A stretch of 59,682 nucleotides of DNA, filler included, from Jimgerdemannia flammicorona (lineage: Eukaryota): NCBI GenBank assembly GCA_003990765.1. It is 3 parts of 3 records of this genome, joined end to end, with 100 filler letters (N's around TTAATTAATTAA, not from the genome) between each part and the next. Parts side by side here need not be neighbours in the genome. Positions count along the whole stretch, not along the records: positions 19,931 to 39,759 come from RBNJ01001841.1; 2 more parts are not named here. The stretch is one strand, 5' to 3'. Below are positions 2,463 to 54,819 of this stretch, piece after piece. The stretch's first letter is position 1, and each line of letters opens with the position of its first letter. The notes under the pieces were generated by a model. That model was not told the origin of the DNA. It saw nothing but the letters and a program-made list of their open reading frames with translations, and did no database searches. Position numbers and translations under genes: made by a program.

Positions 2463-3031
2463 AGTATGTGAATTTGGGTGGTTGTGGGGTTGGGTTGGAG
2501 TGGGGTGTGGTAAGGCGTGTGTGTGGGATTGGATTACGTGTCTCAAACACATGACGTTGACTCTTTGCAACGTCACCCCATCACGAAATTGAGATGTGAT
2601 CTCCAACGATACATATCTGGAAGTATCCATATTTTTCATAACTTGGACTCCAGGAGTACCCAAACCCGAACATATCTACATATCTGGCGATTTGATACAA
2701 AATCTCCAGAGAACAAACTGAAAGTTAGAGAATCTCCTGATAAGTGTTTGTTCTGCAAATCTCCAGCTCAATTCTCCAGCACAATTTTCTCATATATTCA
2801 GAGATCATAAAAATTACAGTCAGCTAATATATCTGGATATATACAAAGTTTTTCTGGAGAGTTATTATTGGCAAATGATTTTGTTTATAGTATTTTATTT
2901 TTTTATTTTTTTATTTTTTATTTTTATTTATTTTTAATATATTTATTAATTTTTAATAAATAATTATTTATATTATAGCTATAATAGTTCTAGTTTCTTT
3001 AAGAAGAAGCAGCTAAGTCCTAGAAGTTCTA

Positions 3032-6355: not shown

Positions 6356-7676
6356 ATGCACGCACCAGCACTCCATCTCCCTGACCTCGATCTTTCGCTC
6401 CTCTCCTAGGAGAACCTGGCCGACTGATACGCTTTGTTGCCGAACTTCAGCACGTGACTCTGTATGTCGGGTTCTTCTATGTCAAAAACCATGGTATAGA
6501 CAAGGCGTTACAAAAAGAAAATATTGCGCAGGCCAGAAATTTTTTAAGTTGTCCCTCGAAGAGAAGGAGGAGAGAGAGCCCGCATTTCAGGGGATGGGTG
6601 AGACTAAATCGCTAATCGCTGCATTTCTCATTTCCAATCACTACCATAGGTCTTGAAACAACTAACTACAAGCAAGACAATAGGTACCTCTTTTCCTACC
6701 TTATTTGCCATACCCACTTGCAACCTATCCACCATCCACTCACTCCCTTCATCTCCTCCCCACAGAGAACAATTTGATTATGGCCTAGAGCTTCCTGTGC
6801 CAAAGCTCTCTTCACGCACCTCAATATCCAAGTCCCGAACAAGTGGCCACGTGAGACGAGCGTTCCTGGGTTCCGCCACATTTATGGAGGATCCGTGTGG
6901 CATCGCCCACAGGCCCATGCACGCCGTCGCCTTGAGCCTAGAGGAGTTCTTCAAAAGATCATTCGGAGACATGCCACACATTAGGGTGAAGGTTGTTAGG
7001 TATTTGTCAATGGACGACAAGCCAGCAGAACATGTGCTTGGTGTTGGGCCGCATAAGGTATGATTGATTAATCAATTATTTTCACAAGCACCATGTATGA
7101 TATAATGATATCGAAATGAAATGCGGCCTTCTTTCTCTCCTCTTACCTTATCTCTCCTCATTTCTCACAGGACTACAGCTTCCTCACTATCCTAATGCAA
7201 GATGATGATGTCGGTGGCCTTCAAGTACAAACAGCCGATGGCAAATGGATTGTGAGTATCGTTTCCTACACTCAATCTCCTTCGCTTCTTCTATTGCTCT
7301 TCCCCACCAGGATGCAACTCCAATCCCAACACCTTCATTGTCAACATTGGCGAGGCCTTCGAACGTCTGATACAATGTTGCTATGTAGCAACGACGCATC
7401 GCATCCTCAATAATACCACCGGGCGCGACCGCATCTCCATCCCCATCTTCTTCAACCCAGCCACCGATGCACAAATCCCGCATGTACGCATCCCCAATTA
7501 CATCCTGAGACAGGTGCCCGCGAATGTGGTTTAGCAATGTGAAGGAGGACCAGTTGTTGCAGGATCCTATTTATGGCATAAGTGCATTTAAAGGACTCGC
7601 GAGAAGCCATATGAATGAATTTGAGAGGTGGTATGCCACTGGCGAGGATGGAATAGTCAAGAGGAGGGAGGTGTGA
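6356..7676 (+). pseudogene. 2OG-Fe(II) oxygenase (isopenicillin N synthase / DIOX_N family) pseudogene
   Basis: Motifs LPDLDLS, VGFFYVKNHGID, EQFDYG, GVGPHK|DYSFLTILMQDDDVGGLQV (HxD split by an intron), FIVNIGEAFERL...ATTHRIL...RISIPIFFNP. Exon 1 has in-frame stops and frameshifts. Stop TGA at 7674-7676. Confidence 0.85.
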
Positions 7677-16975: not shown

Positions 16976-18724
16976 CTAAACCTGTTCCCTGAGTACGACC
17001 TCGGCCGCCGACCGAATTTCCTCCAGTGTTGTTTTCACATGCTCGAGATGCGTTCTGTAATGCAACACACAAATCCTCACCACCACGCCCCACTCTGGAA
17101 GTCGCGTGTTCGCGAGGAATACTTTGCCTCTCTTGTTGACGTGTGCCATCAGCCTCAGCGTCATTGCGTCTCTCCGTTTACCGTCCATCTCCTTGCCTTG
17201 TCCCTTCCAACGGAACGAGAGGACCGAAATCTGCGGCTCCGTCACTCGCTCAATCAACGAAATACTCGCGAGCTCCTTCCAAGCCCACCTTGCAAGGTCC
17301 CACTTCTCGTCGAGATAACGCCGGAAAGTTCCCAGGCCGTGCATCTTGAGCGGCAGCCAGACACGGAGCCCCCTGACAGGGCGAGTAAGCTCTAGGGAGT
17401 AGTCGCAGAAGGAGGGGAACATCAGGTCGTCTTCTTTCGTGTCCTCCGGTCGCGGGAGGTACTCGCCATTTACGTCGGAGAACGCGTACCGGAGGTACTC
17501 GGCATCTCGGACGAGCAGGAGCCCGGTCCCATGGGGGAGAAAGAGGCTTTTGTGCAAGTCCAGCGAGACCGAATCGCTACACTCAATCCCACGGAGAAGC
17601 TCGCGGCCCCTGTCCGTCATTATGAAGCAGCCTCCATAGCATGCGTCGACATGGAGCCACACCTCGGGGTGCTTCTTGACCACGTTTGCGATAGCGTTGA
17701 GGTCATCCACGGCACCTGTATTGGTCGACCCAGCGTTCGCAACGACGAGGAATGGGGCCCAACCGTTGGCGATATCATCTGCAATCATGGCCTCCAGGAC
17801 TTCAACCTGCATCCGGAACGTTGTCCTGTCTGTCGGGACGCGTCGGACGTTTTTGGCGGGGATTCCCGCGGCGACGCATCCCCTCACGACGCACATGTGG
17901 GCCTGATCAGAGGCGTAGGCAACGGCGCGGGAGAAACCCTCTTCCTCGGTGAAACGGCGACGACGAGCGCAGACAGTCGCGCTCCAGTTGGTCGTAGAGC
18001 CGCCCGAGCTGAAGGAGCCAAAGCCGGTGGTGGGATAGCCGATAAGATTGGTGAACCACTTTATGACGTTGGTCTCCAGCTGGACCATGCCAGGAGAGCC
18101 GACCCATACACCGACGTAGGAGTTCAATGCGTTTCCCACCTAGGATATGAAGAGAAAATTGAGCCTTTTTTTTTTTTTTTTTTTTTTCTCTAGCTAAGAA
18201 CCGGAAATTCAAATACACTCACCAGATCCGCTAGGCCGGTTTGAAGCAAACCGCCTCCGGGAATGAATGCCTGCATTCCCGGTCCTGTGTGATTGATGCC
18301 TATGCATACAGAAGGTACGCGATTATCAGTCGGACAGTCAAACTCGAAAAGATATCTGTCTGGGGCACCGAAGTGCAAACGATAATTCACCGTAAGATAA
18401 CTCACCATAAGCGGTAGCCTTCTCGCATACAAACTTCAACAGATCATCGAACCCCTCCGGGCTCTTCATACCCTCCTCTGGAGCGCGATCCTCATTTTTT
18501 GCAAGACTCCGTACTAACTCCACGGCATCGCCGTGCGATTTGGGATCCCAGTTGACAGTGTCGAGAGTGGATGCAGCAGCCGTGGTGGCTGCATCGTTAA
18601 TGTCGCACACGTGCTGCGATACAAGAGCGAGGAGACGGGTAAGCTCGGAGCGTGGAAGCTCTAGCTCAGAAGGGGGGTCGAGCAGGGAGGAGGGGAGGAA
18701 CGTGGACGATTTGATTGGTGCCAT
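16976..18724 (-). CDS. Group II PLP-dependent (aromatic) amino-acid decarboxylase, 519 aa
   Basis: Exons 18724-18406, 18299-18223 and 18139-16976 splice in frame. Motifs SGGSTTN, YASDQAH, VVANAGSTNTGAVDDL, WLHVDACYGG, DSVSLDLHKSLF (PLP lysine), LELTRPVRGLRVWL. TATA-like element at about 18781-18787. Confidence 0.93.
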
Positions 18725-21613: not shown

Positions 21614-22485
21614 TTTATTTTTATTTTTTTTTTCATTATCAAATGTTCAAATTTCATATTTCAATGATATATATACAGATGAAGGGGAAGTGTAAAAAGA
21701 GTTATAACATAATTATATTCAATCAAATTCATCAAAAGCCAAGAAGATAAGGAACAAAAAAAGAGAGAAAGCAACAAGTCCTAAGATAAGAGCAGACTTA
21801 TATGTAAACCACCAAACCACCCACAGGAATTCACAATATATCCAACAACATAAAGACCATTGAGCAAAAAACATTATTACAGATGTTTGATATTCTACTA
21901 TATAATTTGAGGTTGATGTATGTAACTCTTTTGAAATGTGTTTATTGGTTCTCAGCTCATTTGTTCTCCTTCCTGATTTGAGTCTCTTTCTTGAGAGTGA
22001 AGTTATTCACAATGTTAAAAGTTTTATGGATTTCTTCAGGAGACTTGCCTTGATCATATTGATGATAGTCTTGTAGCCGACATCAAGCAGAGGCTTGATA
22101 TCAAGGTAGTTGGTGGCCAAGATAATCTCAAATAGAGTTTTTTGATCAACCTCCATGAATTTTTGATCTCAATCTTCAATATCAGTATTCTGCTTTTGAT
22201 CCTCAGTGTTTTTGACGGTAGAGACTGTGGAATTCATATAGTGGTATTCATACCATTTGATGACCTTTCTCAGGATCTTACTGTTCACATTGGGGAGGGG
22301 GATGGGAGCATCACTCTTGCCAACATCTTCCAGCATATTCTTGATAAAGACAGATCTCTGGGCAACCTCCTTATCAATGGGGAAGTTCTTGTTGTCCAAA
22401 CTTGTGAAAGTAATCTTAGTGGTCATTGTTGTGGTATGAAAGATATCAGAAGGAAGGGGGGATGGTCTTAAGGTAGGAAGAAACA
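21614..22485 (-). pseudogene. SKP1: Processed (retrotransposed) SKP1 pseudogene
   Basis: Intronless CDS 22426-21942 (IPLPNVNSKILRKVIKW...W>stop [31 protein letters not shown]...SPEEI.KTFNIVN.F) with 5' and 3' UTR. Poly(A) at about 21614-21633. Degenerate TSD AGCAAGAAGTTTGTT (21599-21613) / AGTAAGAATTTTATT (22486-22500). Confidence 0.9.
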
Positions 22486-23479
22486 AGTAAGAATTTTATT
22501 ATATAAAGTTTCACCTATCTACTGATTTAATTAGAATACTTCTTTTTACAGATAAAGTCTGTCTCACTTATTACAGATATGGAGATCAAATTATCATTAT
22601 ACATCAGGTTCAATTCTCTTCAGATTGTCAGATAGTTTAGAATGAATTCAAGTTCAGAGGTTGGGCTTTATATCAACTTATAGGAATTCTTATAGGGAGT
22701 TATAGCAAAGTGAGGAAATATCTTGAAGTAGAATTGGATTATAAACCACTGCTACTAAGTTATAAGAGAGTTACTTTGTTAGAGTACCATTATATATTTC
22801 TGGAAGGGATTTCAGGAAGTTCTAGATATTCTGAAAAACTGTTTTCTTAAGATCAAGATCAATTTTGTATAGAGTACATCCTCTACACTTATTGATTTTA
22901 AGATTAGATTGATATCTTAATCAAAGTTCTTTTTTCGACTTGTTCTAGATATTCAGGAGGTTCTGTATTTCAGGAAGTTCAAGAAACTAAGAACAGTATA
23001 GTTGAATTTTCATAACTTGGTTAGAACTGAGAACTAATGGGATATGGATTTACATAAGAGTGGTTTATTGGTTATTAAATAGGTTTATTTGCTATTTATG
23101 ATATTGCTATACTAGGAGTAGTTGGGATAAGATATTGAAGGGAAGTATTCAATAATTCTGAGCTATTCTTGTGTGTTTGAGTTTATTTGTATCTGAGTTT
23201 CTAAGGTCTGGGAGAGCAGGTATTTATACTAATAAGAAGCTATCTGGATATTCTTTGATAAGGTCACCATTAATGATATTATCTCTTGATGAAGTCTGAA
23301 CAGTTTTCTGACTTCTGATATCATCAGTTTTAAGATGTTATCATATCTGCCTCTTGCAAAATTAAAGCTGTCCTCAGCAGAGGTGGTTGCATAGAAATAA
23401 CAGATCTTAGTTCTTTTTTTTTTTGGACTATTGGCATATTTGTGAAGACTAGCCATCCTTGTCTAGAGTGAGAGCCCTC

Positions 23480-24280
23480 ATTGTCATGACTGGAGGTTCA
23501 AACCTCTTAGAAATATTATTTTCTATAATCTAAGACAATTTATAATAACAATATCTGTCATATAGATTGACTTGAAATTGGTTTTGACAATGTTGGCTTT
23601 CTTGAGTTCTATATAAAGCATCTATTATTCTCTAGTAGAGATGATACAGATAGAGTGAACAGAGTTGTTCAAATGCATTTTGCTTCTGCTGAGTAATAAG
23701 GTCTTATATAGCTTAGTCTTGAGTTGATAAGTATCATTTATGAACTTTTGATAGATGAGATAGGGTCCTTCTTATTTTGGTTTAAGTTTGGTACTTTAGT
23801 TTTCTTTTATTATAGTATAGTATACCAAGACTGATTGTCTAATAAGTAGAGATTCAAAGTTGGTCTTGTGGTTATAGTACTTTTTCTAGTATTCTTATGT
23901 CTTGGTAATAAATTCTCATACTTGCTGGTATACTTTGTATAATCAAGTGATCTCTTTAGTGACTTATTTTATGATCTTATATATATGGGGTTTCTGAATT
24001 TGTTCTGAGAGTGATGTATGATTTTAGTGGCTTGGAGGTTATATGTTTATCAAACTCTAGATACTTATCAAACTGAGGGTAGTATACTGAACTACTTGAA
24101 AACCAATTTTTCTCTATTATTCATCACTCAAATTAACAATTTTCTTAGAGGATACTTGCCAAAGGTAGTCAAGAACTTCAGGTTGAGTACCAAAAGAATG
24201 TAAAGTCTTTTGATAACTATAAAGTATAGTTATCAATAAAAAGACAACCCTATTATTTGGTAGAGAGTAGCTCATTGACA
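23480..24280 (-). mobile_element. Ty3/Gypsy integrase C-terminal remnant with possible LTR end
   Basis: KLKPK*EGPYLI...DTYQLK (GPY/F motif) near 23720-23795. Possible LTR terminus ...TCATGACA at 23482. Confidence 0.55.
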
Positions 24281-27200
24281 GATAAGGCATTCTATTTTTT
24301 TTTTTTTCTTTAGTGTATTTCTGACTTCTTTATTATCTAACTCATCTATTTCTAATATAATACAGTGACACCTCTCTTAACTACTCCCCCTCTGGAGACT
24401 ACTCTCTATTCCTTCATAATTAAAGACTACTTGATAATTAACCATTACAACCCTCTCTCCACTCTGCTTATAAATCTCCTCTACCAGATATTTATAATGA
24501 TCTTCTTAAGAGATCCACCCACTCATCAGCCAGACATTACCTCTCTTAATAATTCTTCTCATCTCATCAGATATTTCTCTAAACTTATCTATCTTCTCTC
24601 TTAAAATATATATAATCAGTGTCTAGTTAGCTTCACCCATACTGTCTAGATTCATCCAACTATCAGTTACTTAATCAATATAATCTACCAATCTCTCTCT
24701 CAATTTATCCCATCAATTCCTCTCACTATTCCCTCTTCTCACTACTTTCAGATAATTCCCAACTACTATTCAGAAATCTTTAAGAACCTTATACCCACTT
24801 AGCCAATATTTAAATATCTGTGTAAAATCTCTCTTCTATTCTATACTATAATACTCCTTATAATCAAATTATTGCTATCTATCAAGTAATCGGACCAAAG
24901 GTTCAACATAATATTTCTCTACAATAAATGCCACCATATCATCCAGGACTTTGGAAGAAGTTACTGCTATACCTCAGTACTCTAGGATCAAACAGCTACC
25001 TAGTTTTACTCCTTATTAATTCCAGCCACCTATCAGTCTATGGGCTATAAATTCTGTTCTATTTCTCTTTGATACTCTATATCAGTACTAAGGTCAGAGT
25101 CTACTAATAGGAAACTACTCATAGTAATCTATCTCATTACTATATTACTAGATCTCAATATATCTCTCTCTTAGCACTATACTAATATAGTCTAATATAG
25201 TATATACTATTTACCACCCTCCACCAGAAGCCCTTATATCACAAGTATCTACTGTTACTCAGTCTGATCAATAATAGCAGATTACCTGAGGAGCCTCCAA
25301 GAGAAATCTCATCTCCCAGACCTTCTGCATCAGTAGTATCCATCTGCTACTCTGTAATTTAATAGCTCACTTTAACAACCAAGCTCTCAGATAATGTAGC
25401 TTCTTAGAGAAGTTTACCAGATCAAGACCTCCTTAGTTCACCAGTGTGGCTAAAATCTTCCAACCAATCTGATATCATTTTCTAGCCCAGATCTATTCCC
25501 TAGCTTACTTTAAAAATCTCTTAATCATCTAGACCAAAAAGTCTAAGTAATAAATCAGATATATAACTTTGGTAACCAGTAAATATTCAGTATTGATTTC
25601 CACTCTAGCAGAGAGATATGATGTCCCCTTAGCTTTAAAGGGCCATCCCCCAATCAATTATCTTTCTCTCTTACTATATTCTTGGAAAAAAATGGTCAGA
25701 TACTATACAGCAACTTCTGTAGAGACAATTGTTCCAATTATGTCTCCACCAACTAGTTTATTTCTCAATACTATTATCTCATACATATGCTAGTTGAGCT
25801 TTGCCCCAGAATGCTCCTCATACTATTCCACTGTCTATCTCAGTACTTCAATATCAGTAACTGAGCTAATAACAACTATCATATCATCTATAAAGACCCC
25901 AATCTTCTATACTATTCTGAAAACTAAAAGCTCAGCCATCTTATAATAAATTCTATCCCTCAATAACTTTAGTAACAGAGTATACTGAATATGGGACAAT
26001 AGGTCCTTCTGAAGAATACCTCTCTACAACTGAAATGTGATATTACAATAACTATTATACAAAAACACTACTCAGTTACCCTCTAGCAGACCAATTATTG
26101 AAACTCAAAATTGCTAAGAAATAGCAATTCTGTTCAGCATCTTTTTTAACCAAACTCTCTAAACATAATTATAGATCTTCTCTTGATCTAGGAAGACCAA
26201 TCTCCCATCCAGTCCACTAGCTCTCAATCTCTCAATCATACTATATACTTAAGCTGTCCTATCTCTAATAAGTTGGCCTATAACAAACCCCTATTACTTC
26301 TAACCCAGCACCTGTTGGACTACTCTCTATAGCTATATAATAATTACTTTTATGACCAGCTTTCTGTCTATATTCAGAAGTATAATTGGTTACCAAATTT
26401 TCCAATCCTCTCTCCTGTCTTTGTTCTTAAACAGCAGTACAGATATGAGAACATAATTACAAAGTACTGCTATCTCCTCCAGCACTTCAGAGATCCCTAC
26501 TATCTTCTTTCAGAAGACCCAGAGCAGACCATCCTTACTCAGCATTATGTCTAATTTTATAGTATTCAGGACCTACAGAATCTCATTCTTCATGATCAGT
26601 GAATCAAATATTCAAGGTCATCTATCTGTAGGGGTTACCAATCCTCTAGAGAGCACTCTATAGCCTTAGCATCAGTACTCCCTTCCTTCTCACTCCCAGA
26701 TCTTTCTATCTTCTCTTCAGAGAGCCCAAGATCTGCTAAGTATCATACATCAGTATATCAGCATCTGATGTTCTATCTCTCTACTATCTAACCCTCCTTA
26801 CCTAAAGTATTCATAATAGGTACTTAGAAGGCTGCTCACCTTTCTCAAGTCTCTATCATCTCAACTAAGCTACTATCTCTCTTATATAAGTCTCTTCCTT
26901 CCCTCTCAATACTCTCTGTAACTTTACTATCTCTAACTTTGATTATACCAATCTTCAATTTTCCACCACCTCCTGGCTAAGAATTTAGTCTATTTTATCT
27001 ATAACCAGACCAACTAGTTTGAAACCTACCTCACTCTTCTATACTACTCCTTTCCAGAAAACTGACCAGCCTCTCTCTAATATATTCTTTCAGCCTTACT
27101 CAGCAGACTTCTATAGAGAGCCCCTCATAATTTCAATGAGTAATCTTCAATATAATGTCTCTAATTCACTTGTCCCACAACTTCTTCTCAACCAGCAAGA

Positions 27201-29344
27201 AGAAATTGAGTCACTGATGTTCAGATCCATTCTTACTCTCTCCAAACTAACTATATCTCAATAATCTCTGATAATATGACCACAGGTATCATTTAATCTC
27301 CAAATCCTTCTAAATATTTAATCCCAGTAGTCAGCTGTCAGCATCCAGTCAATCCTTATTCCAAGTCCACATACTCAATAAGTATAGACCCTATAATCAC
27401 TCCATATTACCCAGTCAGTATCTATCAAAAAGCTAAGCCTTTCTATATTTCCCTAAATATCCAGATCTTTACTATAGTCTCTAGTACTCCTCTCTCAATC
27501 AGTCTTATCTAATATTTGATTGTAGACTATGTTGAAATCTCTCCCAAGTATATCAACCTCTGTCTCAGCCAGTATTTCACTATTAAGAAGTCTATTAAAT
27601 CACTCAATATGCTCACTCTATACTATCAGACAATAATATGAGTCAATAATAATAGACTCTCACTCTACTCTCCCTAGACTTATCTGTCACCTCAGCTCCC
27701 AATCTCACAGAGTTTGCCCTTGTCTCTTTATATCAGAATTCCAATCTTGTTCCTTCAAATGGCTATACCACTCTATTTCTACATCTACTCCTGTCCTTCC
27801 AAATCTATCTTCTAGTATATATTCTACTAAAGAAAGAAATTAACCTCCAATCTCTTCAGCTGAGAGAAAATGTTCCAATACCTCACAGAGTCCCTTAAGC
27901 TATTGAAATTCAGCAAGTAAATATTTGTTATACCATTCATAAGAAGATAATATTATAGAATAGACCCAACTCATTACAGCTCTGTACTCATCTTCTCTCA
28001 AGCCAAGTCTAGACCATACTCTGCCACAGCCTCTGTTATCTCAGCCTCTCTTATCTCTAGTTTAGCCAGAATTTCAACAATTATCTCATTATCCTTCTTT
28101 TCTATATTATCTTTATATTTCTTATAAGTCTCTTGCTAACATTATAGGCCATGCTATAGCTCTAATTAGAAAGCAGTCCTTTTATCTACAATTGTCACCA
28201 ATTCAGCCTCTCTAGTCTTGTCAATCTCACAACCTTCTTCCTCCAGTAATACAGCTAGAACTTTGGCCTTCAGTTTCTCTACTAGTCTATTCTCTCTCAA
28301 TATACACTCCCACTATTCCTCACTGATTACTCACAAGTCCACCTCTCCTAGCTTCTCAGCAGCCAAGCCATTCATCATCTTGATTATCCACAACAATTCT
28401 TTGATACCATTTCTACTAAGAGTTAATAGCCTCTCCCCTCCTTACATTATAATATCAGTACTCATTCTTACTAACTTATCTCACTCCTCTACTGAAATAT
28501 CCTACAGCTCATCCTCTATAAAATCAATCTTCTGTTCTCTCTTCATAACATCAGATACTCCAAACTGAACTCTCTATATTTCTCTCATCTCCACATCTAC
28601 TATTCTGAGCATTAGTCCTGACCTCTAGCCTCTCCTTCTTCTCTCAGACTTCAAGCACATCTTTATCATATAGCTACTTATCTCTAGCCTCTCTTCTCTT
28701 TACCACTCCTCCTAGTATCTCTTCGGCTCTATCTCTAGTCAGGTAATTACTATTGATTCACCAAAGGCCCTATCAGTCTCAGCAGCAGACCTATCCTTCA
28801 AATCTACCAATAGTTCCTTCTGTCTCTTCCTCTTCTGAGCCTTTCTCTACAATATCTTATCTATCTATCATCTCTCCCATTCACTATCTCTAAGTATATT
28901 GATCTCTTATAAGCTCTCTATATTACTATCTGATTAGTGCTGTAAACAGATGGAGTTGATCCAGATGAGATTCGATTCAGATTTGTCATGTAATGGATTC
29001 AAATCAACTTGGATTGGTCTTGTGATCTGATCTGGATTGATCTGGATTGATCCAGATTGATCCATCTGGATTGATCCATCCGGATTGATCCATCTAGATT
29101 GATCTGGATTGGTACATCTGGATTGGTCCATCCAGATTGGTCCATCCAGATTGGTCCATCCAGATTGATCTATCTGGATTGAAATCTTTGGTGACATCAT
29201 ACTTTCTTTTGTTCATTTTGCTCTTGTTTTTTTTTTCCTGCTGCACTTTGGTGATATCACCCTTTCCTTTTGCTCTCTCTCTTCTTTTGCTGTTTTCTTT
29301 GTTCTTTTTCTTTGTTCTTTTTCTTTGTTCTTTCCTGCTACATC

Positions 29345-31583
29345 ATGAGCAAATAAAACAGCAGCCCTTAATTCATATGCTGGTCCAGTCTACTCATTTT
29401 TCACCCTGCAATAATCATCAAAAGAGGGAGTATTCGAGGTGGAAATGCACTCTCTGCTGACAATGTTAGATTCTTTCTTATATAGACAGCACACAAGCTG
29501 CTCATCGAGAGCCAAAGGGGCAATGGCAGTGGTGGTGGTGATGGCGATGGTGATAGTGGTGGCGGGGATGAGGGAGAATTCCAGCAACAACTTACAGTGG
29601 CCCTTTGGACCTCGGAATTCACAGACCTCACAGCTATATATGTGGCAGCCTTTTTGGAGCAGCTGATAGTAGATGTAGGTTGCTCACTCGGCCATCACTT
29701 GTTTACTTGTGTTTATTTAAACTTCCCCAGCATGACTCAATTCACCTCGTACTTTTCTTAGGGTCCACAGCTCTATGGCAAGATCTGCCGACTTTATTCG
29801 CAACATCTGGTCAAGATGAAGAAAGACTGGCAAATGTTGCAGGTCATGCCTTTGGTGGCTGAGCTGTTGAGTCAATGCATCACATGGCAGAGGTCTCAAA
29901 AGGAACAGAAGCAAGCCTTCATGAGCAATCTTGTGCAACTTGTACAACTCATTGGCATGCAACTTGTCGGTATGCAACTTGTTGGCATGCAGCTCACTCA
30001 CTCACTCACTCATGCTCTTTTTCTAAAATACCCATCTCCATGTTTTATTTAATTTTATTTTTACGTGGTCTCCTACTAAAAAACACCCACACCCACATGC
30101 AACCCACTCACATGCAACCTGCCCACATGCAACCCACCCACATGTAACCTGCTCGCACACAACCTGCCTACATGCAACCTGCCCACATGCAACCCGCCCA
30201 CATGCAACCCACCTGCATGCAACCTGCTCACAACCCGCCCACATGCAACCTGCCCGCATACAACCTGCCTGCACACAACCCGCCCACACACAACTTGCCC
30301 ACACACAACCTGCCCACATACAATCTGTCTGCATACTTATCTTGGTCTCCCAGATCAGGGCTCAGTTCTATTGGAAAGGAGAGTTCAAAGTTACCCAAGT
30401 TCAACCATGTCCGGCATCTGATCAAATAGAGAAATTCGAGGGCAAGATGTTCAGCATGAGCAGTACCAGCATCATCATTAAGGCTTGGGGGTCTACATTC
30501 GAATCAGAGCTAATCATACTCAACCAAGGGGTCCACTGGTGAGCAGGAGTAACCAATGATGAAGAGAATCATATCTTTATTAACAAACATGGAGAGGTGG
30601 TTGCAATGGTGGTAAGGAACCTCTATGGTGACGAGCTTTGCTGCCACATCAATGAGATTTGCGAGGATTGCGTCAAATACTAGATGGCAGGAAAGAGGGG
30701 GTGAAAAAAGCAAGGAGGGGGGGTTTGGATGAGAATTGGGTATACTGCAACACTGGCAAAGAGTGGGTTCTGGAGTTCCGAAATCCCCTGCACTCATCTT
30801 CCTTTTTTTAACCCCTCTCCAGATTAATCACACTCTTCACCGATATACTCTTTTTGATACAATTCCAGGGATGCACAAGATTCTGTACCCCTACCAGAAC
30901 TTTAGAAGTGCTGTCAAAGAGCAAACTACATGTGAGCTTGACATGGCCTGTGTGGCAATGGTGGCTATGATCTGGGGTTCTTTGAGCAGATTGGTAGAGC
31001 ATAGGGCAGGCCAGTTTGGTGGTGATCTCGGCGCAGCTGTATGTACATTCTTGGCGCAATTTAGCATGCCATATAAGGTGAGGAGCTCCGCTTTTTTGGG
31101 GTGCTGCAGCCCAGGGGGTTTCTGCCCCCCTGAACACAAAAAGGACTGACCAGTTGCCATCTGTTTCAGCAGGTTTCCAAACCGAGGCTCCCAGGGCTGG
31201 ACCAAGAGCAGGTGTCCACCAGTATAGCCTGGCAGTATGAGGTCCTGGGCCAAGGGTTCACCCAACCATATGCTCACATCACATCAGGATACATCAGGCA
31301 CAACCTTTCTCTGCCCACACACACAGACAACAATGTCACTCTGGTAATGTTTTATGTCCCGGAAAGGAAGGGCCCAATCTGGGAGGACAGTGGCAGAGTC
31401 TGGTATGACCTCACCTATGGTTTTGGGGTCCCGTTTGTAGCCAACACGGCCATCCTATTCCAACCACATGACCACCATGGCACCATCGCCTTCGAGGAGA
31501 GCTCAGACACAACAGTTGTCGCACTCATAATAGATGATAGGCTCATCAAGGCCTGGGACCGGCGGGTGGAGCAGTTTTTGTGA
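29345..31583 (+). pseudogene. Passenger gene: putative TET/JBP-like 2OG-Fe(II) dioxygenase, inactivated by nonsense mutations
   Basis: Core exons 30354-30762, 30869-31077 and 31170-31583 splice in phase. Peptide IFINKHGEVVAMVVRNLYG...GVWMRIGYTAT...ELDMACVAMVAMIW...SGYIRHNLSLPTHTDNN (HxD, 31320-31328)...GRVWYDLTYGFGVPFVANTAILFQPHDHHGT (distal His, 31476). Stops at 30540, 30681 and 30702. Upstream exons and start are uncertain. Family assignment is from motif recall, not a search. Confidence 0.6.
30085..30325. repeat. 15-bp minisatellite (CCCACATGCAACCTG)n in an intron of the passenger gene
   Basis: About 16 tandem units with CG/CA/TG variants. Explains the MQPAH/QVACG ORFs. Confidence 0.9.
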
Positions 31584-31863
31584 GGGTTAGGCAATCTTTC
31601 ACAAGGGTTAGGCAGCCATTTTGTGCAGGTTAGGCAGCCATTTTGTGCAGGTTGGGCAGTCTTATGTGGGCCAGGTGCCTCTTATGTAGCACTAGCTTAG
31701 TCGTTATGCAGGGCCCTACCAGCCCCTTGGCCCTGCTCTGTAGTACCACCAGTGTGGCACTGTGGTGCAGGGCCGGGGTGCCTGTGGGACCCGAACTGGT
31801 GACTTCAACTGCTGGAAATGCCCTCCGACCACCAGAAGCACCCTCTGCCCCGGACTCCTTAGT

Positions 31864-32303
31864 AGCTTGGGGCTGCCCCTATGCCACTGGTAGAGGGCTG
31901 CAAATTTTGTATGCTCTCTCTGTCTGCCCCGCCTGTCCCAGACACTTGTGGCTTGGGGCTGCCCCTTGCTGCCAGTGGAGGGCCACAAATTTTGCATACT
32001 CCCTCTGCTGACTCCGCGCCTGCCAACCCACCAACTGACCCCACCCACTGACCCAGGCAATGACAGCTTGGGGCTGCCCCTTGCTGCTGGTGGAGGGCTG
32101 CAAATTTTGCATGCTCCCTCCATCTACCCCCCCAACCTGGACACTTACAGCTTAGGGCTGCCCCTGGCTGCTGGCAGAGGGCCACAAATTTTGTGCACTC
32201 CCTCCACTGACCCACCAACCCGCCCACTGACCTGGGTACTGGCAGCTTGGGGCTGCCCCTTGCTGCTGGCTGAGGGCCGCAAATATTGCATGCTCCCTCC
32301 ACT
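31864..32303. repeat. Array of five ~58-bp palindromic cores with alternating spacers
   Basis: Core AGCTTGGGGCTGCCCCTTGCTGCTGGTGGAGGGCTGCAAATTTTGCATGCTCCCTCCA at about 31864, 31950, 32065, 32149 and 32244. Confidence 0.85.
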
Positions 32304-32453
32304 GCCACTGCCAACCCTGTCCCACTTGGACTGCAAACTCCAGGCCAAGTCCTTAGGTTTTTTTTTCCTTTTTTATTATTTTGAAAGGTATTAATTTGAA
32401 AGATATTAAATATTCCACAAGGCCAACCAACTTATCTGTGGACCCCCTGAATT

Positions 32454-35126
32454 TTAGTGGCCTGAGCCCCACCAAGACTTCAGACACATACATGCCTGGA
32501 TTGTCTCAGCATTCAGTGTACACCTCTTTGGGGCAATGAGGTCCACCCCACCTGAGAACACCCACTCGACAGGAGCACTGGAGGCAGGAATCGCTAGGTA
32601 GTCCCGAGCCATACCACACAGACTGCGGAAGTCTGTTTGACACAGCTGCATGCCCCGGTGGATAGAGCAGTAGTTAGATTGATGGGTTAAATTGGCCCAA
32701 TGCCTGCCTGACAATACCCACCTGACAACCCACCTTCTACCAGTTGAGCTCCTCTGCGCCCTCCAGCAGGATTATGTGGTTGCTGGTGAGGTAAATGGGG
32801 AGTTCATCTATTGATGGCAGCTCTTTCACTGATAGCTCCCTCTTCCTCTTTCTGCTGAAGTAAATGTGAGACAGGAGGGAACCCTTGGCATATTTGTCCA
32901 GACTTCAGCTGAAACCTTTTGGTGGTGTGTAGTTTTTCTGGTACACTTCAATTACAGCCTACTTGGTTCTCTCAATGAAGTGCTGCTCCCAGCCCTGATC
33001 TTTGTAGTATTGTAGCTTTAAGCGTGGGTCCAGTACTGTTTGAAGAAAAGGAGAGTGAGTTTTTGTGGGGTTTCCTCTGTTTTGGAAGAGGCAATGGCTA
33101 CACACCAACATTGACATACCTGTACTGATTGAGTATACTGCAGTATCTATTTGGGAGTAGTATTTCCTGAGCTTGCTTAGAGCAACCTCCACAGCATCTC
33201 TCTGATCTGGGCTTAACCGTAAATCACCACAACCCTCCAGCCTGTCCTCGAGCTTGTTCTCTAGCTAGTCAATCAGAAGGTTGTATACTGGTATCGCAGA
33301 GCTTATTGTTGGAGTCATTTGTTTGACTATATCCTTCATACAATCATTGAAACACTAGCAGTTATATGTGGTGAGGTGTTGCATTGTGTGGAGGTAGACA
33401 AAATGAGTGTAGAGCCAGAGCAACCACCACTTACTTCCAAAACTCTGACAACATTCCTAAGTACATCCCACTCACTTTCATCTAGAGCCTTGGCCCATAT
33501 TTCCTTGTTAGCAGCCATCATTGAATCTATTGGCTTTTTTTTTTTTTAATTTTTTAAAATAAATCTTCTATCATCTGAAACAGTTGCTTCAGCTGACCGA
33601 AGAAAAAATGGATGCATACCACAGCAAACTCCAGCGTGCACTGGATCATTACAAATGTTGAGTTCTAATGCATACAGATATTCAATATAAGCTCTTTCAG
33701 GGCTAAACTGATTGCCCTATACTATGCAGCAAATTTGTCTCATCATTGCGGGGATGATTGGACCAACACAACCAGTTTGTGCAGCTTGGAAATTATACTC
33801 AAGGCCCCTCCTCTCTAGGATGTTTTGTCTATGTGTGTAAGATAGTCCTAAACAGCGAGATTCAGTACATGGGCCTGGCATCGTACATGGCAGCTTTCTG
33901 CACTGAAGGCCACATTTTTCTGTTTGAGGCTGGCTGCTAAAGCTTGGAAAAATGTTGAGTTGTTTGTGGCATTGCCCATCGTAATGGCCAAAATCTGTAC
34001 TTGAAATATTTGGTTGGCGAATTATGCGAAAATAAATAACCAACAAAATCTGTTCTGTTTAAGGACCTCTCTCAAAATAATGACCTGACAGCAAGTCCCC
34101 CTTTTTTTACCTTAGTTGTGATCCCAAGCTCCTAGATACAACTAATAAAAGTATCTGCGATGTTGTCTCCAGAATGAGGGCCAGTAAGTTTGATGAAGTC
34201 AAGGGTGAGAGATTTAAACTGCCAATCGAGGTCAATCTAATGACCAGTAATGCCCGGAAACGAAATTACATTGGGGGATGTCCATGTGTCAATTGTAAAT
34301 GGCATTTTGCCTGCTGAATTCTGCTTATTGAATGTAAGGTTAAATTGGTGAGCTCTTTTATATAATTCAGCTTGCAAAGGTCATGGTACTGCCCTTATTT
34401 TACCTGAAGTGTCTGGTGGAGATTGTCATGCTCCTTCCTATAGGCCTCCAGGACATCTTTATGAATAGTATCGGCACTTGGTGAATATAAATTATGCTTG
34501 AGGAGACCAAAGATGCTATGCAATGGATCACTCTCGATGGTTGTGAATGGCTGGTCTGTGCACACAATCCAGTGAATGAGCTGATTTCAAAATTCTGTTG
34601 AAGAGTATGGCTAAATATTTTTGATTAAATGGCATTGTTGATATAGAAATGGTTGGGCAATTAGATAAACATACCCACCAGAGCTTGGATGTCGATTTTA
34701 TTTGTCTCCATGTTCTTTTTGATTTTGTCAGAGTGCTTGTCTTTTATGTATCAATTCATGTTCAAGGTCATACCACCAAGCATTTTGAACTTCTGGCTGA
34801 TGCAGTTTATGGGGGTAAATGAAACAATATCATGTGTATGTCAAACAAGTCAATAGGTGTGTCTTAATTTTTTACCTGCAATAATTACAAACAACATCAT
34901 CTCCTATCTTAGCACAATGTTGCCAGATTTTGGAGCAAGGATTGTGTGGAAGGTGTGGAACTATCTGGGATGTTTGACTTGAAGTATCATCAGTACTGTG
35001 AACTGTTGAAGACTGATCTGTCAACATGTGTGTTTGCATGTTTATGTGTGCATGTGTGTATATGTGTGTGTGTTGTGTATACATGTGTGTGTAATGTGTT
35101 GTGGACACATCCGGCATATGAGTCAT
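32454..35126 (-). pseudogene. hAT transposase (BED finger, DDE core, hATC dimerisation domain), multi-exon, inactivated
   Basis: SKIWQH...VCNYC (BED), IDTWTSPN..F.GITGH (about 34290), HSGDNIA, RCQAHVLNLAV (about 33880), VLDPRLKLQYY, MARDYLAIPASSAPVE(W)VFSGG...R..L...I...MCLKSW. Several stops. Start uncertain. Confidence 0.92.
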
Positions 35127-36186
35127 GTGGAGGATTTGGATTGGAGAATTTAGTTGAAGGATTAGGATGAGGATTCAGATTGGAGGATTCAAATTAGAGG
35201 ATTCAAATTGGAGGATTCGAGTTGAAGAATTCGGATTGAGTGATTCGGATTAAGTGATTTGGATTGAGTAATTTGGATTGAGTGATTCAGATTGAGTGAT
35301 TCGGATTGGGGTGGTTTGGATGGGTAATTTGGATGGGGCAATTCAGATGGAACAATTTGGATTAATCTAAGTTGATTTAGATGGCTTCAGATTTGAGATT
35401 TAGATCGAACCATCATGTGATAAATCGAATCTGGATTTGATTCAAATTGACTCATTTGGAGCACTATACCTGATGCTCTACTGCTCTACTGAGCTCCTCC
35501 AGGATATCTAACAGATCCTCCTCCTCCTTCTTACATCTCTTCACCTTTATTACCTTATAAACAAAAACCTCTACATTATTACCACAGACCAGTCATGAGC
35601 TTTCTCAGTAGCCTCTCTTCCAGTGGCCCCACCTCTTCAAAGCCTACCTCAATCCTCTTCAGTCTCATAAGGAATTCACAAAAGTTTTTCTAGTCATCAG
35701 CTTTGAGATTAACCCCAAAACCAACTTTGCCATCTCTGCTAGTCTTCAGAAGTACAATATAACTATAAACTCTAAAATTGACTTCTTGGTAATGGAGTTG
35801 CTTTTAGATCTATAATACTCTTTATCAGATTTCTCTTCTCACTATACTCCATCAGCTCAGCCCTACTATCAGTAGTGATATCTGGATTTTTTTTTTTATT
35901 CAGATCTCTAGTTATACTACCATCAGTAGTCTCCCTAAATCTGTCCTATCAGCCAGCAACCCTTTTGCCCCCCCAGCACTTACTATCTCTCTCACTCTAG
36001 CCTTACTACTCTGTATACTATCTAGTCAACTCCCTGTCTTCACCTTTATAGCAAAACTCATTAGTCTTTGCTCTCCTCTACTTTTGTCAGAAAACTGACT
36101 CCTATTCTGCTCTTTCAGTCCACTCTCTCCACTAAAGGATCCCATCTTCAAGTTATACCCTTGTCTGATGTATTGTCTGTCAAAGG

Positions 36187-39859: not shown

Positions 39860-40955
39860 ACCACCCACCAAGCACTGCCCCCCCATTAACCTAGGCTAGC
39901 TATTGTCCAGCAACTCGACCATGCCAGGTGCAGTAGGGCTGATAAGCCCGTACCTCATTCTGCATACCATGCTCTCCCTACTACCAGGGAAAACCCAACC
40001 ATATGCCAATGACCGAAAGCGCACGCCTGAGAACCCAATGTATGTACAAGGCCATGCCCGAGCTGAATAGAATAGCCCCTGCCACCCCAAAGAGAATGAT
40101 AGGCAAATAAAAACCCTCATCAAAGCACAACATGGTGGGTAGGGCCTGGTTCTCCCAGTCGAGGTGAGTAAAGGACTTACACATGAGGCAGGAGGAAACC
40201 CCCAATACCCCACTTCTCAAGCCTGCGGGCCTCGATCACGTTGCCATGTCAGCTCCCGGTTCCAGTTGAGTGCAGCCAAGACGCCTGAAATGGGTAGCCT
40301 TGGGCCCCCCGACCCCCTCTGACGACTGGGGCCTCACTCCACTATCCGCCAAAAGAAGCCGAGAGTGACACCTACCACCTAACCGCACTGCACCAATCAA
40401 AAGGCCCTACCGAAGCAGCATCTGCCCCAGCCCTGATGACTGCCCCCAGCCTAGCACCCTACTGGTTCATCGTAATCGCCCTTCCACCTATCTGTGATAG
40501 CCATCTCCCCTCCCATCCTGACAACACCTGAAAAGCAGTCACCTATGCCAGAACTGCGCTCACCGGGAAGCTCGCCAAAGCCAGAGGGCCCCACCACAGG
40601 CACCGAGGACCTGCAGGTAACCTATACTGAGCACTTGACACCCAAGGTCGGCCGACTCCCTACGTAGCCTGAGACACACCAAGACAACTCCTAGTTGGCG
40701 ATGGCAAAAGGAAGAAGGTGCCGCACCAAAACAGGTACATCCCAGATGCAGCTGAAGGCACCAGAATCCGCGAAAAAGTGGGGGAAGCACCGATCTGACA
40801 CCAATAAAGGGGCAACTCATCACCATTGCCCTCCTCCCACCATGCCCCTGCAGGCACAGCAAATCAACCCAAGGTAGAGGGGGTAATATTAGGGGAAAGG
40901 GGACTTGGAAGGTCGCCTACCAAACCTTGTGACCGGTAAGGTAGTGGAGAAAGGG
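39860..40955 (-). mobile_element. Non-autonomous poly(A) retroelement, copy 2 (youngest, CpG retained; 3' end cut by contig edge)
   Basis: Colinear with 3119-4218. Same 5' end CCCTTTCTCCACTAC. Confidence 0.8.
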
Positions 40956-40959
40956 TGCT

Positions 40960-41696
40960 GAAGCCTATAGGCCTCAATCATATTGCAATGTTAGCTCTCA
41001 GTTTTAGTTGAGTGTAGCCAAGATATCTAACCTAGATAGCCTCAGACCCCCCAGCTACCCCCAACAATTAGAGCCTAATCCCACAAATTGCCAAAAGCAG
41101 CCAAGAGTAACACCTACTACCTAACTACTCTGTACCAATCAAAAGACCCCACCAAAGTAATACCTGCCCCATCCCTGATGACTGCCCCCAACCTGAGACT
41201 CTACTGGTCTACTGTTATTACCCTTCCTCCTATCTGTGATGGTCATCTCCCCTCTCATCCTGACACCACCCAAAAAACAGCCACTTATGTCAGAACTGTA
41301 CTTGCTGAAAAGCTCACCAAAGTCAGAGGGCCCTACTATAGGTACCAAGAACCTGCAGATAACCTATACTAAGTACTTGATGTCTAAGGTTGGCTGACTC
41401 TCTATGTAATCTGTGATATATTGAGATAATATCTTATTGGTAATAGTAAAAGGAAGAAGGTAACACATCAAAACAAGTATACCCTAGATATAGCTAAAGA
41501 TATTAGAAACTGCAAAAAGTGAAGAAGATACCAATTGGCACTGATAAATGGGCAACTCATCACCATTGCTCTCCTCCCACTACACCTATGCAGATACAGC
41601 AAACCATACTGGGGTAGAGGATAAGAAGTTAGGAGAAAGGAGATCCAGATAGTTACCTGCTAAAATCATGTTACTGGTATAGTAGTAGAGAAAGGA
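40960..41696 (-). mobile_element. Non-autonomous poly(A) retroelement, copy 3 (older, interrupted by copy 2)
   Basis: Colinear with 40219-40955 but with many more C>T/G>A changes. Confidence 0.78.
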
Positions 41697-42678: not shown

Positions 42679-45600
42679 CATCTTTTTCTAGTAATATTCA
42701 AGTTATTCAAACTTCTGGCAACACTCACAACATTATTTTTAGAGAATAGATCTTAGGAATATAGCAATCAATAAGTACTCTGAGGTGCATACCGGGCAGA
42801 ATGACCCTAGTATGTTCAACTGACAGTATGTGGGGAGGAGTCATAGCTTGGGGGGAAGTATACAGGACTTACTGGCTGGAGGATATGAAAGGGAAAGAGG
42901 CAGTACTGAGAGACAGAGACCTAAGAGGATGAGCTTTACTGAATAGATGATGGGAAGATATCTGTCAACTGGATTGGAGGGTTGGCTGAGGAAGGACAAG
43001 GAGACAGCAAGGACTGTGAGACCTGGTGGAGCAGCCCATGGTAGTGAGGGCAGTATGGCCAGAGGAGTAGTGGCTGGAGGGAGTGAGACTGCTGATGACA
43101 AGGAAACTACCAATTTGGAAAATAATCTAGATATGATAGTTGATGGTGGATCTGGACAAAGGGTGGGCACAAGGTCCAGAGATCTGGCAGATGGTGTAAT
43201 AGACCTAGTAATGACAATATTACTCAAGAAATCAAGGTTGGAAATTGCTATCATATTGTATTTCTGGAGCTTAACAGTCACAGCAAGGATGATTCTAAGA
43301 CTGAGCAGCCTTGGTGAAATTTTTGAAGAGTTTGGAAGGAATGGAGATGGGCTTTGAGATGGAGGATGTGCTGCTGAAAGCAATGAAGTGTGGTAATGGA
43401 GGGGGTAGTGATCCCTATAGCTTAGTGCTTATATTGGAATCCCTAAATAGTATAGTTGATAGTGGTAGATATATCTATGATGTTGAAGGAGATGACCAGG
43501 AGGTTGATTGTGGAGGCTGTCAAAGAGTATGGAAATATTATAGATATTGAATTTCAGGTCTAGAAAGATACAGAGTTCAGAATAGGAGATATAGATATCA
43601 GAGTATAACTGGCTAGCAAGGAGAATATATGAAAAGAGAGGGACTGGCCAGTGGTCTTCAAATGGGGACCTGTAGAGTATAAGGTTTCAAGAGTTAAAGG
43701 GATACCAGAGGAAGAAGAGGACTTGCTGGAGGTATTGGAGGATCTGGCTGAAGCTATTGAGAGGAGGAGATTGATATGAAAAGAGTTTGAGACCAAGAGG
43801 TAGTAGAGATTGTAAATAGCAAGAAAGTGTAGCTGGATCAGACAGCCTGGGAGAGGGTACAGAGGAGGCATATTTAAAAAGATCTATTGGTAAAGTTGGG
43901 TAGAGGGGCAGAGAGGGGGACCATTGCTGCAGATATTGAATTGAGGGTAAATGTCTGAGCAGAAGAGAAGAGAGCAGTATCAGAGGAGACCCCAGGGAAG
44001 AGTGGAGGCTCAGGATGGAGTGCAGTAATGGAAGATGAAGAGATGGGCAAGGAGGAGTATTCACAGTATAGGGTGCCAGCAGAGGCTAGAGGGGATGACA
44101 AACTGCAGGAAGTGCTAGAGGAGGATTGGGATGAGTTGGCAAGGATGAATGGAGAGAGAGGGCAGGTAGAAAGAGGGAAGGTGGTGGACCAGAAAGTGGA
44201 GGAGGTGGTTGATGAGGAGAAGTAGCTATGGAAAATGCTGACAAATGTAGTGGCTGAGGAGCTGAGGGAAGAGAACTTTTGAGCACTTAGTGAGAGGTAC
44301 TGGGGAGAAATTCTGTGAGGTGAGGAGGGTCACAGAAACTCCAAGATGAGATAATAGCAGCTTTGCTAGATACTGAGGTATATCAAGTGAATGATGAGAG
44401 GGAGGTAGTATTTCAGATGATTATAAATAATATTTATCTGTAGGGCCCAAGAAAGGGGCTAACAAAGTGGCAGGTATTATGTGAGGAGTACTGGGAAAAT
44501 ATGGAAGCCATGGATAGTGCAGATTGTCAGAAGATCTTGGAGGTATTGGAGGCTCAGCAGAGAGAGGCAGATGAGAGGCAGAAAGGAACCTGGATGTTAC
44601 TAGTGATGCAGTGAGCATAGAATTGTAGAGAGGGCCACAGTTCTTTGAAAAACATTATTTAATATAAACAGTACAACTAGAATCTTCTCTTTAAATATCA
44701 ATGGACTATAAGAAGTAGTAAGGCATAGAAATATCCTCTGCTGACTGAAGGGGCTGGATGCATATTTATTTTTACTATAGGATGTTAGATGTGATGGAGA
44801 CTTGGATATTCTGGACTGGATGAAGGAATGAGGTAGTATGACTATTTGGTGTGGGTGTGTGGATATTCTGGTTAGGAAGGGCAATAGAGACATTAGAGAT
44901 ATTGGACATTGGAGGAGCAGGATAGTGTAGGGAGTTTGGAAGAGACCAGGATAGGAGCCCTTGACAGTTGGGTCATATTATTGTCAGGCAGAAAGGGGGG
45001 AGAGAGAGAAATAGATTCAAGGGCTATGAGAGCCTGGAGTATTGGTAGAGGTGGGAATTAACTGTCTAGATAGGAACTTTAATATGATATGTAATAGAAA
45101 GATAGACAGAACTGATGAGGGAAGAGAGATGGCTGATAGAAGTGATGGTATGGAAGCCTGAGAGGAGGTTGAACATCTGAGTTCATCAGTGGATGCTTGG
45201 AGGCTTAGATGGGGAGATTGTAGGATCTATACTCCCTGGGTGGTAGGGTTGGGCTCAAGGATTAACTAGATATTGACTGCTGAATACTAGGAAGTTGACA
45301 TCTAGAGAACTTTGGAAACAGTTTGGTACCTGTGATCAGATCACTAGGGCCTTCTAGTAGGGGGGTATTTTGGGGGAAGTATGGAGGGGCCTGGACATTG
45401 GTATCTGAATATCTCATTGCTAGAGAATGCCTTCTTATAGAATATATAGATGGTAGACATTAGCTCCAGGATACTTAGCTGGAGAGTAGAGGGGCTGACA
45501 ATTGGAGACCACTAGAGAAGATTGAAATCAGATGCACAATAGTATTAGGGAGAGACAGGAAGAATGTAGGGTACTCAGAGGAAAAAGCAAGTGAGGTAGA

Positions 45601-54199: not shown

Positions 54200-54819
54200 A
54201 TTAGATCCAGTATAGACTGAGTCTCAATCTTATATCAGAACTAGTATTAACTATTATTCAGACTATAGATATATATATATATAGTAGTATCTATCTATAT
54301 AGAGATATTTAGAACAAAAGGTAAAAATTCTCATTGATATAGAAGTAGTTATATATCTGTATTATTGCTAAGAAGTTCTTAGATACTCTATAGTGACCCA
54401 TTGATAAACTATTTAGTCTCAGTATTATACATAGTAGTAGGTAGAGTCCAAACTTAACCCTTGAGAGATATCTAAAACATCACTATTACTCTTGGTCATA
54501 ACTAGTTCTCTATCTCTAATACTATTGTTACTGAGGCTGTCATCTATAATATAATTCTTAATATCAACTAGATGAAGAAATGAAGACAGATATTGATATT
54601 GATCAATAGGTACTCAAATTTAACTATAGAGAAAAGAAGTATTTGATTAAGATAACTAACTTTAAGCAATCTAAGAAGAAGAAAAAAGTCATTATTTTAA
54701 AAGAATATATCAGTAGTAAGAAATCTATATAGATAAAGAAGAATCTTAAAATAATAATGACCTAAGACTTTATCCATAAATTAACCTAATAGATGATAGA
54801 CCAGAAGATAACATATTGA

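Follow-up and report, generated by a model that had tools for sequence, protein, structure and literature searches.

Did a hAT transposon in the fungus Jimgerdemannia flammicorona carry its own enzyme against DNA methylation? The question is raised by positions 28935-35466 of a 59,682-nucleotide stretch of DNA (assembly GCA_003990765.1; three parts joined end to end, and hereafter called the window). A preliminary description of this DNA had pictured a single element there with two convergent spliced genes, a hAT transposase gene on the minus strand and, on the plus strand, a passenger gene for a dioxygenase resembling TET/JBP proteins. What lies there is an autonomous hAT DNA transposon in a single, inactivated copy, whose short inverted ends are of the TAG... 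kind, and its plus-strand gene is real and conserved. The reading that we favour as a whole, in which an autonomous hAT, now inactivated, carried a dioxygenase with an HxD metal-binding motif and with relatives among the so-called PE-type proteins of other fungal transposons, and for which an anti-silencing role can be proposed, appears to us fairly likely.

We consider first the limits of the element, which were placed correctly in the preliminary description. The single element of 6,532 bp starts with TAGTGCT (28935-28941) and ends with AGCACTA (35460-35466), and the two ends resemble each other again in patches farther inward than the first 12 bases. The flanking octamers, TATCTGAT and TACCTGAT, are identical at seven of eight positions, which fits the 8-bp target duplication and the short terminal inverted repeats of the hAT superfamily; the chance of a match of at least 7/8 at a fixed place is about 4e-4 by hand arithmetic. 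A 7-bp duplication, of the type found in the hAT7 elements of rust fungi that are discussed below, was also considered for this element and was rejected. The symmetric TAGTGCT ends give an 8-mer that matches at 7/8 with its first base included, whereas a 7-bp duplication needs unequal termini. One copy of the element is present in the window.

The assignment of the minus-strand gene to hAT transposases, likewise made in the preliminary description, is borne out by a match to Dimer_Tnp_hAT (Pfam PF05699), the C-terminal dimerisation domain, at 32454-32771 on the minus strand (E value 3.9e-13, 49.5 bits versus a cut-off of 21.4). No Pfam model matched the remaining pieces of the transposase beyond this domain. 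Among these pieces there are in-frame stops inside blocks that we take to be hAT-like. The transposase gene of this copy is dead.

The dioxygenase gene is convergent with the transposase gene and lies between the latter and the left end of the element. Such an order could also arise if the dioxygenase gene sat in a different or nested insertion beside a hAT remnant, and the two genes do differ in guanine-plus-cytosine (GC) content (0.49 in the dioxygenase gene versus 0.42 in the transposase part) and are separated by a repeat-rich spacer. However, beyond the dioxygenase gene the left end shows an inverted terminus and a subterminal array of the type seen at the right end, the target duplication brackets the whole 6,532 bp, and in none of the 25 listed pairs of inverted repeats do the two members flank the gene by itself. 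We therefore regard an origin from two elements as very improbable, and treat the locus as a single transposon with two genes.

Exons 1-3 of the plus-strand gene had been predicted at the coordinates that we give in the table below, and they withstand comparison with homologues. All three have GT/AG borders and compatible phases, and all three are colinear with a 374-residue protein from a metagenome (P0003), of which residues 93-166 align with exon 1 (BLASTP E value 2e-11) and residues 168-227 with exon 2 (E value 1e-6). At the exon 1/2 and 2/3 junctions, the positions and phases of the introns are identical in the window and in a metagenome locus (L001) whose protein shares only about 30% identity with that of the window. 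The exon 0/1 junction is identical to that of L001 as well, conditional on a candidate first exon (exon 0) that was chosen by eye for its resemblance to the N-termini of P0003 and of the L001 exon, and for which BLASTP returned no alignment. The putative intron that follows is filled by a 15-bp tandem array (CCCACATGCAACCCG, about 15.7 copies, 30092-30327). Taken together, these comparisons suggest a gene of four exons and about 370 codons, the first exon being probably present, that would encode an Fe(II)-dependent double-stranded beta-helix (DSBH) dioxygenase. P0003 is one uninterrupted open reading frame (ORF) across all three intron positions of L001 and the window, and therefore its 1,702-base contig is either mRNA-derived or an intron-less copy. 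If this contig stems from spliced RNA, then a member of the family is expressed.

How large is the family to which this gene belongs? When exon 3 was compared by phmmer with 1.84 billion representative proteins, eight matches had an E value of 0.001 or lower. Five of the eight are true relatives, namely P0001 (80% identity, E value 6.5e-69), P0002 (53%, 6.5e-33), P0003 (30%, 7.5e-13), P0004 (1e-8) and P0006; the other three (P0005, P0007 and P0008) were judged to be repeat or WD40 noise. A further relative, P0009, came from a word-indexed search with P0003 that returned only P0003 itself and P0009. No longer relative of exon 3 emerged from a word-indexed search, and a search with a profile of the family returned only P0003 and P0001. 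Metagenomes scanned with the same profile yielded two near-identical short contigs, L001 and a second one (L002) that is 99% identical to it, both of which are without a transposase. Neither viral contigs nor contigs of prokaryote genomes gave a match to the profile, and a search of PHROGs gave nothing meaningful. One cluster of the family holds 28 members at 90% identity or above, which come from separate metagenome contigs, and degenerate forms are included in the family (P0006, and L002 with its stops). A word search of sequencing runs gave small shares only (0.05-0.10 of words), in soil metagenomes and one organism, and no RNA run was listed as a match.

The metal-binding pattern that the preliminary description had read in the last exon, an HxD motif followed by a distal HGT, is present and is conserved among these homologues. 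The first His occurs in all ten aligned family sequences and the Asp in eight, with Asn in its place in P0004 and in the truncated P0006, both of which are degenerate members. The distal His, which lies 52 residues downstream in the window protein, is found in each of the nine sequences that reach this position. An Arg at position +15 from the first His is shared by nine of the ten aligned sequences. We consider it highly likely that the passenger is a DSBH Fe(II) dioxygenase.

Several known systems join a DNA transposon to a factor of this kind. Kyakuja-Dileera-Zisupton and Plavaka transposons of Basidiomycota reportedly carry TET/JBP genes, an association credited to Iyer and colleagues in 2014. 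Like the element studied here they offer a case in which TET/JBP genes, as an expanded family, move along with DNA transposons, although with another transposase superfamily and another type of dioxygenase. VANDAL transposons of Arabidopsis, which are Mutator-like, carry VANC anti-silencing proteins that bind DNA and have no oxygenase fold. They resemble our element in that a DNA transposon brings its own factor against silencing by DNA methylation, and differ from it both in the plant Mutator-like carrier as opposed to a hAT, and in a factor that lacks the oxygenase fold of a dioxygenase.

The closest precedent is much more recent. The preliminary description knew of no hAT-TET association, but this claim has been overtaken: in the excerpts used here, a survey of transposon-borne TET/JBP genes reports 20 TET-carrying hAT families, named 'hAT7', in six species of the rust genus Puccinia, and advances the same anti-silencing idea (Kojima 2025, PMC12730594). 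Because of that report, the window is a further example of the hAT-TET arrangement, already described in fungi in 2025, rather than a new system, and it differs from the published case in its hAT lineage and in its type of dioxygenase. Like hAT7, our element is a hAT DNA transposon with a transposase and a dioxygenase that is probably TET/JBP-like, for which the same role is proposed. According to the same excerpts, hAT7 elements make 7-bp duplications and at least three of the 20 families begin with CAACGGTG, whereas the element in the window begins with TAGTGCT and fits an 8-bp duplication. The hAT7 dioxygenases are of a type called PU, whose T-R-[IL]-G motif contains a distal Arg, while the family in the window has no distal Arg. 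The survey distinguishes three types of transposon-borne TET/JBP dioxygenase, gives domain sequences in its Table S1, and also finds such genes in six further transposon lineages of rusts (Dileera, Harbinger-like, IS3EU, EnSpm, ESTA and Helitron). Proteins of its AG type are close to CcTET, for which structures have been solved and activity on 5-methylcytosine (5mC) and N6-methyladenine has been shown (PMC12730594).

It is the third type, PE, found in transposons of Pezizomycetes and Agaricales, that the passenger resembles most by eye. When the family was compared by eye with the PE-type sequences printed in Table S1 (PMC12730594), seven collinear blocks could be recognized. The first is a GE[IV]VAMV.RN strand, in which the window and the Tuber borchii protein (GEIVAMVYRNF) agree at eight of 11 residues; the preliminary description had linked the VVAMVVRNL block of the window to fungal TET-like proteins, and a counterpart in a transposon-borne TET/JBP-like protein is indeed on record. 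Blocks 2-4 are G....GY[ST], a hydrophobic stretch with W or F as its last residue, and [LI].[RG][LM]D. The fifth is the Hx[DE] strand with an Arg 15-16 residues further on, and the sixth is GG.F[FY]...YG ... N ... HGT[TS], in which L001 and Morchella are identical at 13 of the 36 ungapped positions that run from GG.F to HGTT. The seventh, the final strand, is of the [QNH][GS]L[ST] kind and has no Arg. The passenger and PE-type proteins thus have in common both the missing Arg after the distal His and, by eye, an Arg 15-16 residues after the first His. The N-terminal blocks GE.VAMV.RN and G....GY[ST] were not noticed in the PU or AG rows that were inspected by eye (PMC12730594).

A second lead, towards TET/JBP in general, came from features of ESM-Atlas. 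Those of P0004 led to a PF20515 cluster, 'Tet-like 2OG-FeII_Oxy_6', at 0.90 with 175 shared features, and to a second cluster at 0.90 in which 31% of members are PF12851 (Tet_JBP); the clusters nearest to P0004 consist mainly of hypothetical proteins from Basidiomycota. As judged by eye, then, the nearest described relatives of the passenger would seem to be the PE-type TET/JBP-like dioxygenases of other fungal DNA transposons. Eight peptide motifs of the family have no occurrence in the supplement of Kojima 2025, and therefore no close relative is printed there. The sequence TAGTGCTG occurs in it once, inside a Plavaka sequence; as DNA entries were searched over their first 400 characters, neither this match nor the lack of others carries much weight (PMC12730594). 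A literature search on PF20515 and related names found nothing relevant.

A number of results weigh against this placement, or against the proposed role. The preliminary description had suggested Pfam searches for Tet_JBP and for 2OG-FeII_Oxy families, and these turned out negative: no model, PF12851 and PF20515 included, matched P0001-P0004 (E values up to 10) or the exons of the window and L001 (E values up to 1), although HMMER filters discard weak matches and such a negative is compatible with a distant relation. PDB sequences searched with exon 3 and with the family profile contained no relative. The ESM-Atlas features of exon 3 itself led to phage PF13640 clusters (0.92, 143-150 shared features, with recognition below threshold). 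The link to the PE type was read by eye from printed sequences and has no computed score, and PE-type proteins are themselves tied to TET/JBP only by an HHpred E value of 1.4 to CMD1 together with structural similarity in AlphaFold-DB (PMC12730594). Moreover, HxE is the stated hallmark of the PE type, while our family has HxD (HxN in the two degenerate members). The Arg that would bind 2-oxoglutarate (2OG) distally, which the preliminary description had not found obvious in this copy, is missing from the whole family, as the strand after the distal His carries no conserved Arg or Lys and has H, N, T or A there. Within the window, carriage of the gene is known from one dead copy only. Finally, escape from methylation-based silencing is the proposed role of transposon TET/JBP genes in general, and the authors of the survey state that this function is not experimentally validated (PMC12730594).

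An AlphaFold model of P0003 (8 sequences) had a predicted local distance difference test (pLDDT) score of 35.2 and was unusable, and that of P0009 (12 rows) reached 42.5; both are of low confidence. With the P0009 model, Foldseek found no PDB entry at an E value of 0.001 or lower, and its best rows (E values 0.06-0.2) were headed by a cupin (E value 0.063) followed by prolyl hydroxylases (PHD2/P4H). When VIA-align compared the same model with 48,161 chains, 48 of the 50 entries listed were of the Fe(II)/2OG-oxygenase type, as judged partly by title, at Z scores that do not exceed the background stated by the tool for models without a match (a best Z of typically 7-8). FTO (Z 8.4; root-mean-square deviation 4.1, 152 residues aligned) and prolyl hydroxylases (Z 7.5-8.2 over this comparison and the next) stood above NgTET1 (Z 7.2; root-mean-square deviation 8.0, 159 residues aligned, rank 16 of 48,161), and re-alignment of the top Foldseek chains gave up to Z 8.8 for FTO and up to Z 8.2 for PHD2, but the tool itself counts Z values that differ by no more than 1 as ties, and confidence in the model is low. 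Structures of CMD1, CcTET, TET2 and JBP are absent from the 50-row lists, which with this model is informative neither way. We take the comparison as modest support for membership in the Fe(II)/2OG superfamily, and as no evidence on the clade.

Might the passenger then be a DSBH Fe(II)/2OG oxygenase from outside TET/JBP, either AlkB/FTO-like or prolyl-4-hydroxylase-like, with a substrate other than 5mC in DNA? The ranking of FTO and prolyl hydroxylases above NgTET1, the cupin and PHD2/P4H rows of Foldseek, the PF13640 clusters reached from exon 3, and the lack of a Pfam match to Tet_JBP or PF20515 would all be expected if so. Against this view, PF13640, PF13532 and PF03171 gave no Pfam match either, the structural scores carry the limits just named, the features of P0004 point to Tet-like clusters, and the blocks in the N-terminal half have their by-eye counterparts in PE-type proteins. 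An oxygenase of another clade appears improbable to us, and we hold it likely that the passenger belongs to a TET/JBP-like clade next to the PE type.

If the passenger is a TET/JBP-like enzyme, how would it hold its co-substrate? FIH and JmjC enzymes have a Lys at about the His+15 distance. For TET2 and NgTET1, the excerpts of the CMD1 study used here report that the C5-carboxylate of 2OG is bound by an Arg located beyond the distal His (PMC7854593). CMD1 of Chlamydomonas resembles the passenger in its HxD...H pattern and in having no basic residue that holds this carboxylate; it differs in that an alignable Arg is kept and points away, and it uses vitamin C to make 5-glycerylmethylcytosine (PMC7854593). 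CMD1, which is the best HHpred match of PE-type proteins (PMC12730594), is a host gene, whereas the dioxygenase in the window is a transposon passenger. By analogy, our family may hold 2OG through the Arg at His+15, or may use a different co-substrate. A bolder version of our favoured reading would make the passenger a fourth type of transposon-borne TET/JBP-like dioxygenase, an HxD-keeping sister of the PE type on an ordinary hAT with 8-bp duplications, possibly in a lineage outside those surveyed. Such an enzyme may hold 2OG in the manner of FIH and JmjC proteins, or use another co-substrate as CMD1 does, and might make a modification outside the series of 5-hydroxymethylcytosine, 5-formylcytosine and 5-carboxylcytosine. 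We offer this extension as speculation, and deem it rather unlikely as it stands.

The copy in the window seems to bear the marks of the process that such an enzyme would counter. The element has a CpG observed/expected ratio of 0.24, with TpG at 1.43 and CpA at 1.46, whereas the CpG ratio is 0.76 in the gene-bearing first 23 kb of the window and 1.08 in an ORF for a pyridoxal phosphate (PLP)-dependent decarboxylase there. Each of the stops in the two genes can be explained by a transition, either C to T or G to A; the TAG at 30681, for instance, lies opposite a Gln of P0003 in the alignment. The preliminary description had listed stops at 30540 and 30702 in the dioxygenase gene, both of which are present, and this TAG raises the count in exon 1 to three. 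[quoted passage not shown] A rust-type hypermutation specific to TCG was not seen, since the depletion extends to each of the four NCG contexts of the element (observed/expected 0.08-0.33). With three stops in the dioxygenase gene and many in the transposase gene, this copy is dead.

In intact copies of the element, the enzyme would oxidize a methylated DNA base on the element itself, most likely 5mC. This oxidation would weaken methylation-based silencing or would slow C-to-T decay, as has been proposed for the published TET-carrying transposons. We view this particular role, the oxidation of 5mC on the element with relief from silencing or slower decay as its effect, as a credible suggestion whose chances lie slightly below even.

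A less eventful history would be a single insertion into this hAT copy of a gene from the host or from another transposon, with neutral decay afterwards and no role in the element. A single, broken copy is what the window holds, as would be expected from such a one-off capture. However, the gene is whole, with its own introns and stop, and is set between the left end and the transposase gene; genes of this kind are reported inside transposons of many families in the excerpts of the survey (PMC12730594); and the 28-member cluster on separate metagenome contigs gives the family a multi-copy appearance elsewhere. The metagenome locus L001, whose contig does not include a left end, adds a lead of its own. 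Its 3' end has subterminal repeats of a GATTTGA type, and positions 3589-3622 match the right end of the element (window 35428-35462) at 26 of 34 bases. None of 500 shuffles reached the score of 28 obtained for this match, and control stretches elsewhere in L001 scored 20-22. Relatives of the dioxygenase gene may therefore also ride in hAT-like elements, although the end match serves as a lead only. We judge a one-off capture to be unlikely.

Downstream of its dioxygenase gene, L001 also contains two ORFs of 93 and 94 residues (2320-2945, plus strand), the first of which is found in L002 as well. Neither has a Pfam match or a counterpart in the element of the window.

Features of the hAT element in the window and of its two genes. 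Positions are those of the whole window.
Feature	Coordinates	Strand	Details
Left target-site duplication	28927..28934	.	TATCTGAT; matches 35467-35474 at 7/8, with one C/T transition
Left terminal inverted repeat	28935..28946	+	TAGTGCT perfect; 10 of first 12 bases equal to right end
Left subterminal array	29010..29198	.	14-bp unit ATCTGGATTGATCC, about 10.8 copies
Candidate first exon (exon 0)	29846..29920	+	ATG at 29846, 25 codons; donor AT where GT is expected; tentative
Inferred first intron	29921..30353	+	position matches L001; holds the 15-bp tandem array
Dioxygenase exon 1	30354..30762	+	stops TGA 30540-30542, TAG 30681-30683, TGA 30702-30704; phase-1 donor as in L001
Dioxygenase exon 2	30869..31077	+	GT/AG borders; intron positions common to L001
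Dioxygenase exon 3, DSBH core	31170..31583	+	His 31320-31322, Asp 31326-31328, Arg 31365-31367, distal His 31476-31478, stop 31581-31583
Spacer between the two 3' ends	31606..32317	.	tandemly repeated units of 22 bp (31606-31659) and about 84 bp (31864-32317)
Decayed hAT transposase gene	32454..35174	-	pieces in three frames with in-frame stops (three-frame translation)
Right subterminal arrays	35128..35363	.	14-bp units, about 13 and 7.6 copies
Right terminal inverted repeat	35455..35466	-	terminal AGCACTA
Right target-site duplication	35467..35474	.	TACCTGAT

The surroundings of the element were also inspected. Two pairs of repeats elsewhere in the window, 3120-4218 versus 39862-40955 and 40216-40954 versus 40958-41695, differ by 188:17 and 159:30 transitions to transversions, respectively, and their C/T differences are more frequent in CpA contexts than in CpC or CpG. 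Such a pattern points to deamination, or to a RIP-like process, that acts broadly in the genome. The segments 24000-28934 and 43000-59682 hold blocks of a diverged repeat family, with copies that are 65-67% identical and lie in both orientations. These blocks have CpG observed/expected ratios of 0.00-0.03 and a strong GC skew of about -0.4 to -0.56 or +0.42 to +0.54 (e.g., C 0.355 versus G 0.129), and their ORFs of at least 90 residues gave no Pfam match. The left third of the window contains host genes: a proteasome subunit (1504-2675, minus strand), a PF03171 2OG-Fe(II) oxygenase that is unrelated to the passenger (7120-7531, plus strand), the PLP-dependent decarboxylase (16979-18139, minus strand) and Skp1 (22172-22495, minus strand).

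What does this locus mean for the biology of such elements? The copy in the window is a fossil and offers nothing to assay. Transposons that carry TET genes are the clearest candidates for mobile elements that erase the methylation marks of their host, a function that is putative. Our family and the PE-type proteins are without the canonical 2OG-binding Arg, and so lend themselves well to the question of whether such enzymes are ordinary TETs at all. To the published survey (Kojima 2025, PMC12730594), as far as it is excerpted here, the window adds an ordinary hAT as carrier and a lineage of dioxygenases beyond those surveyed. This new carrier and lineage support a picture in which TET-like genes move freely between transposon superfamilies.

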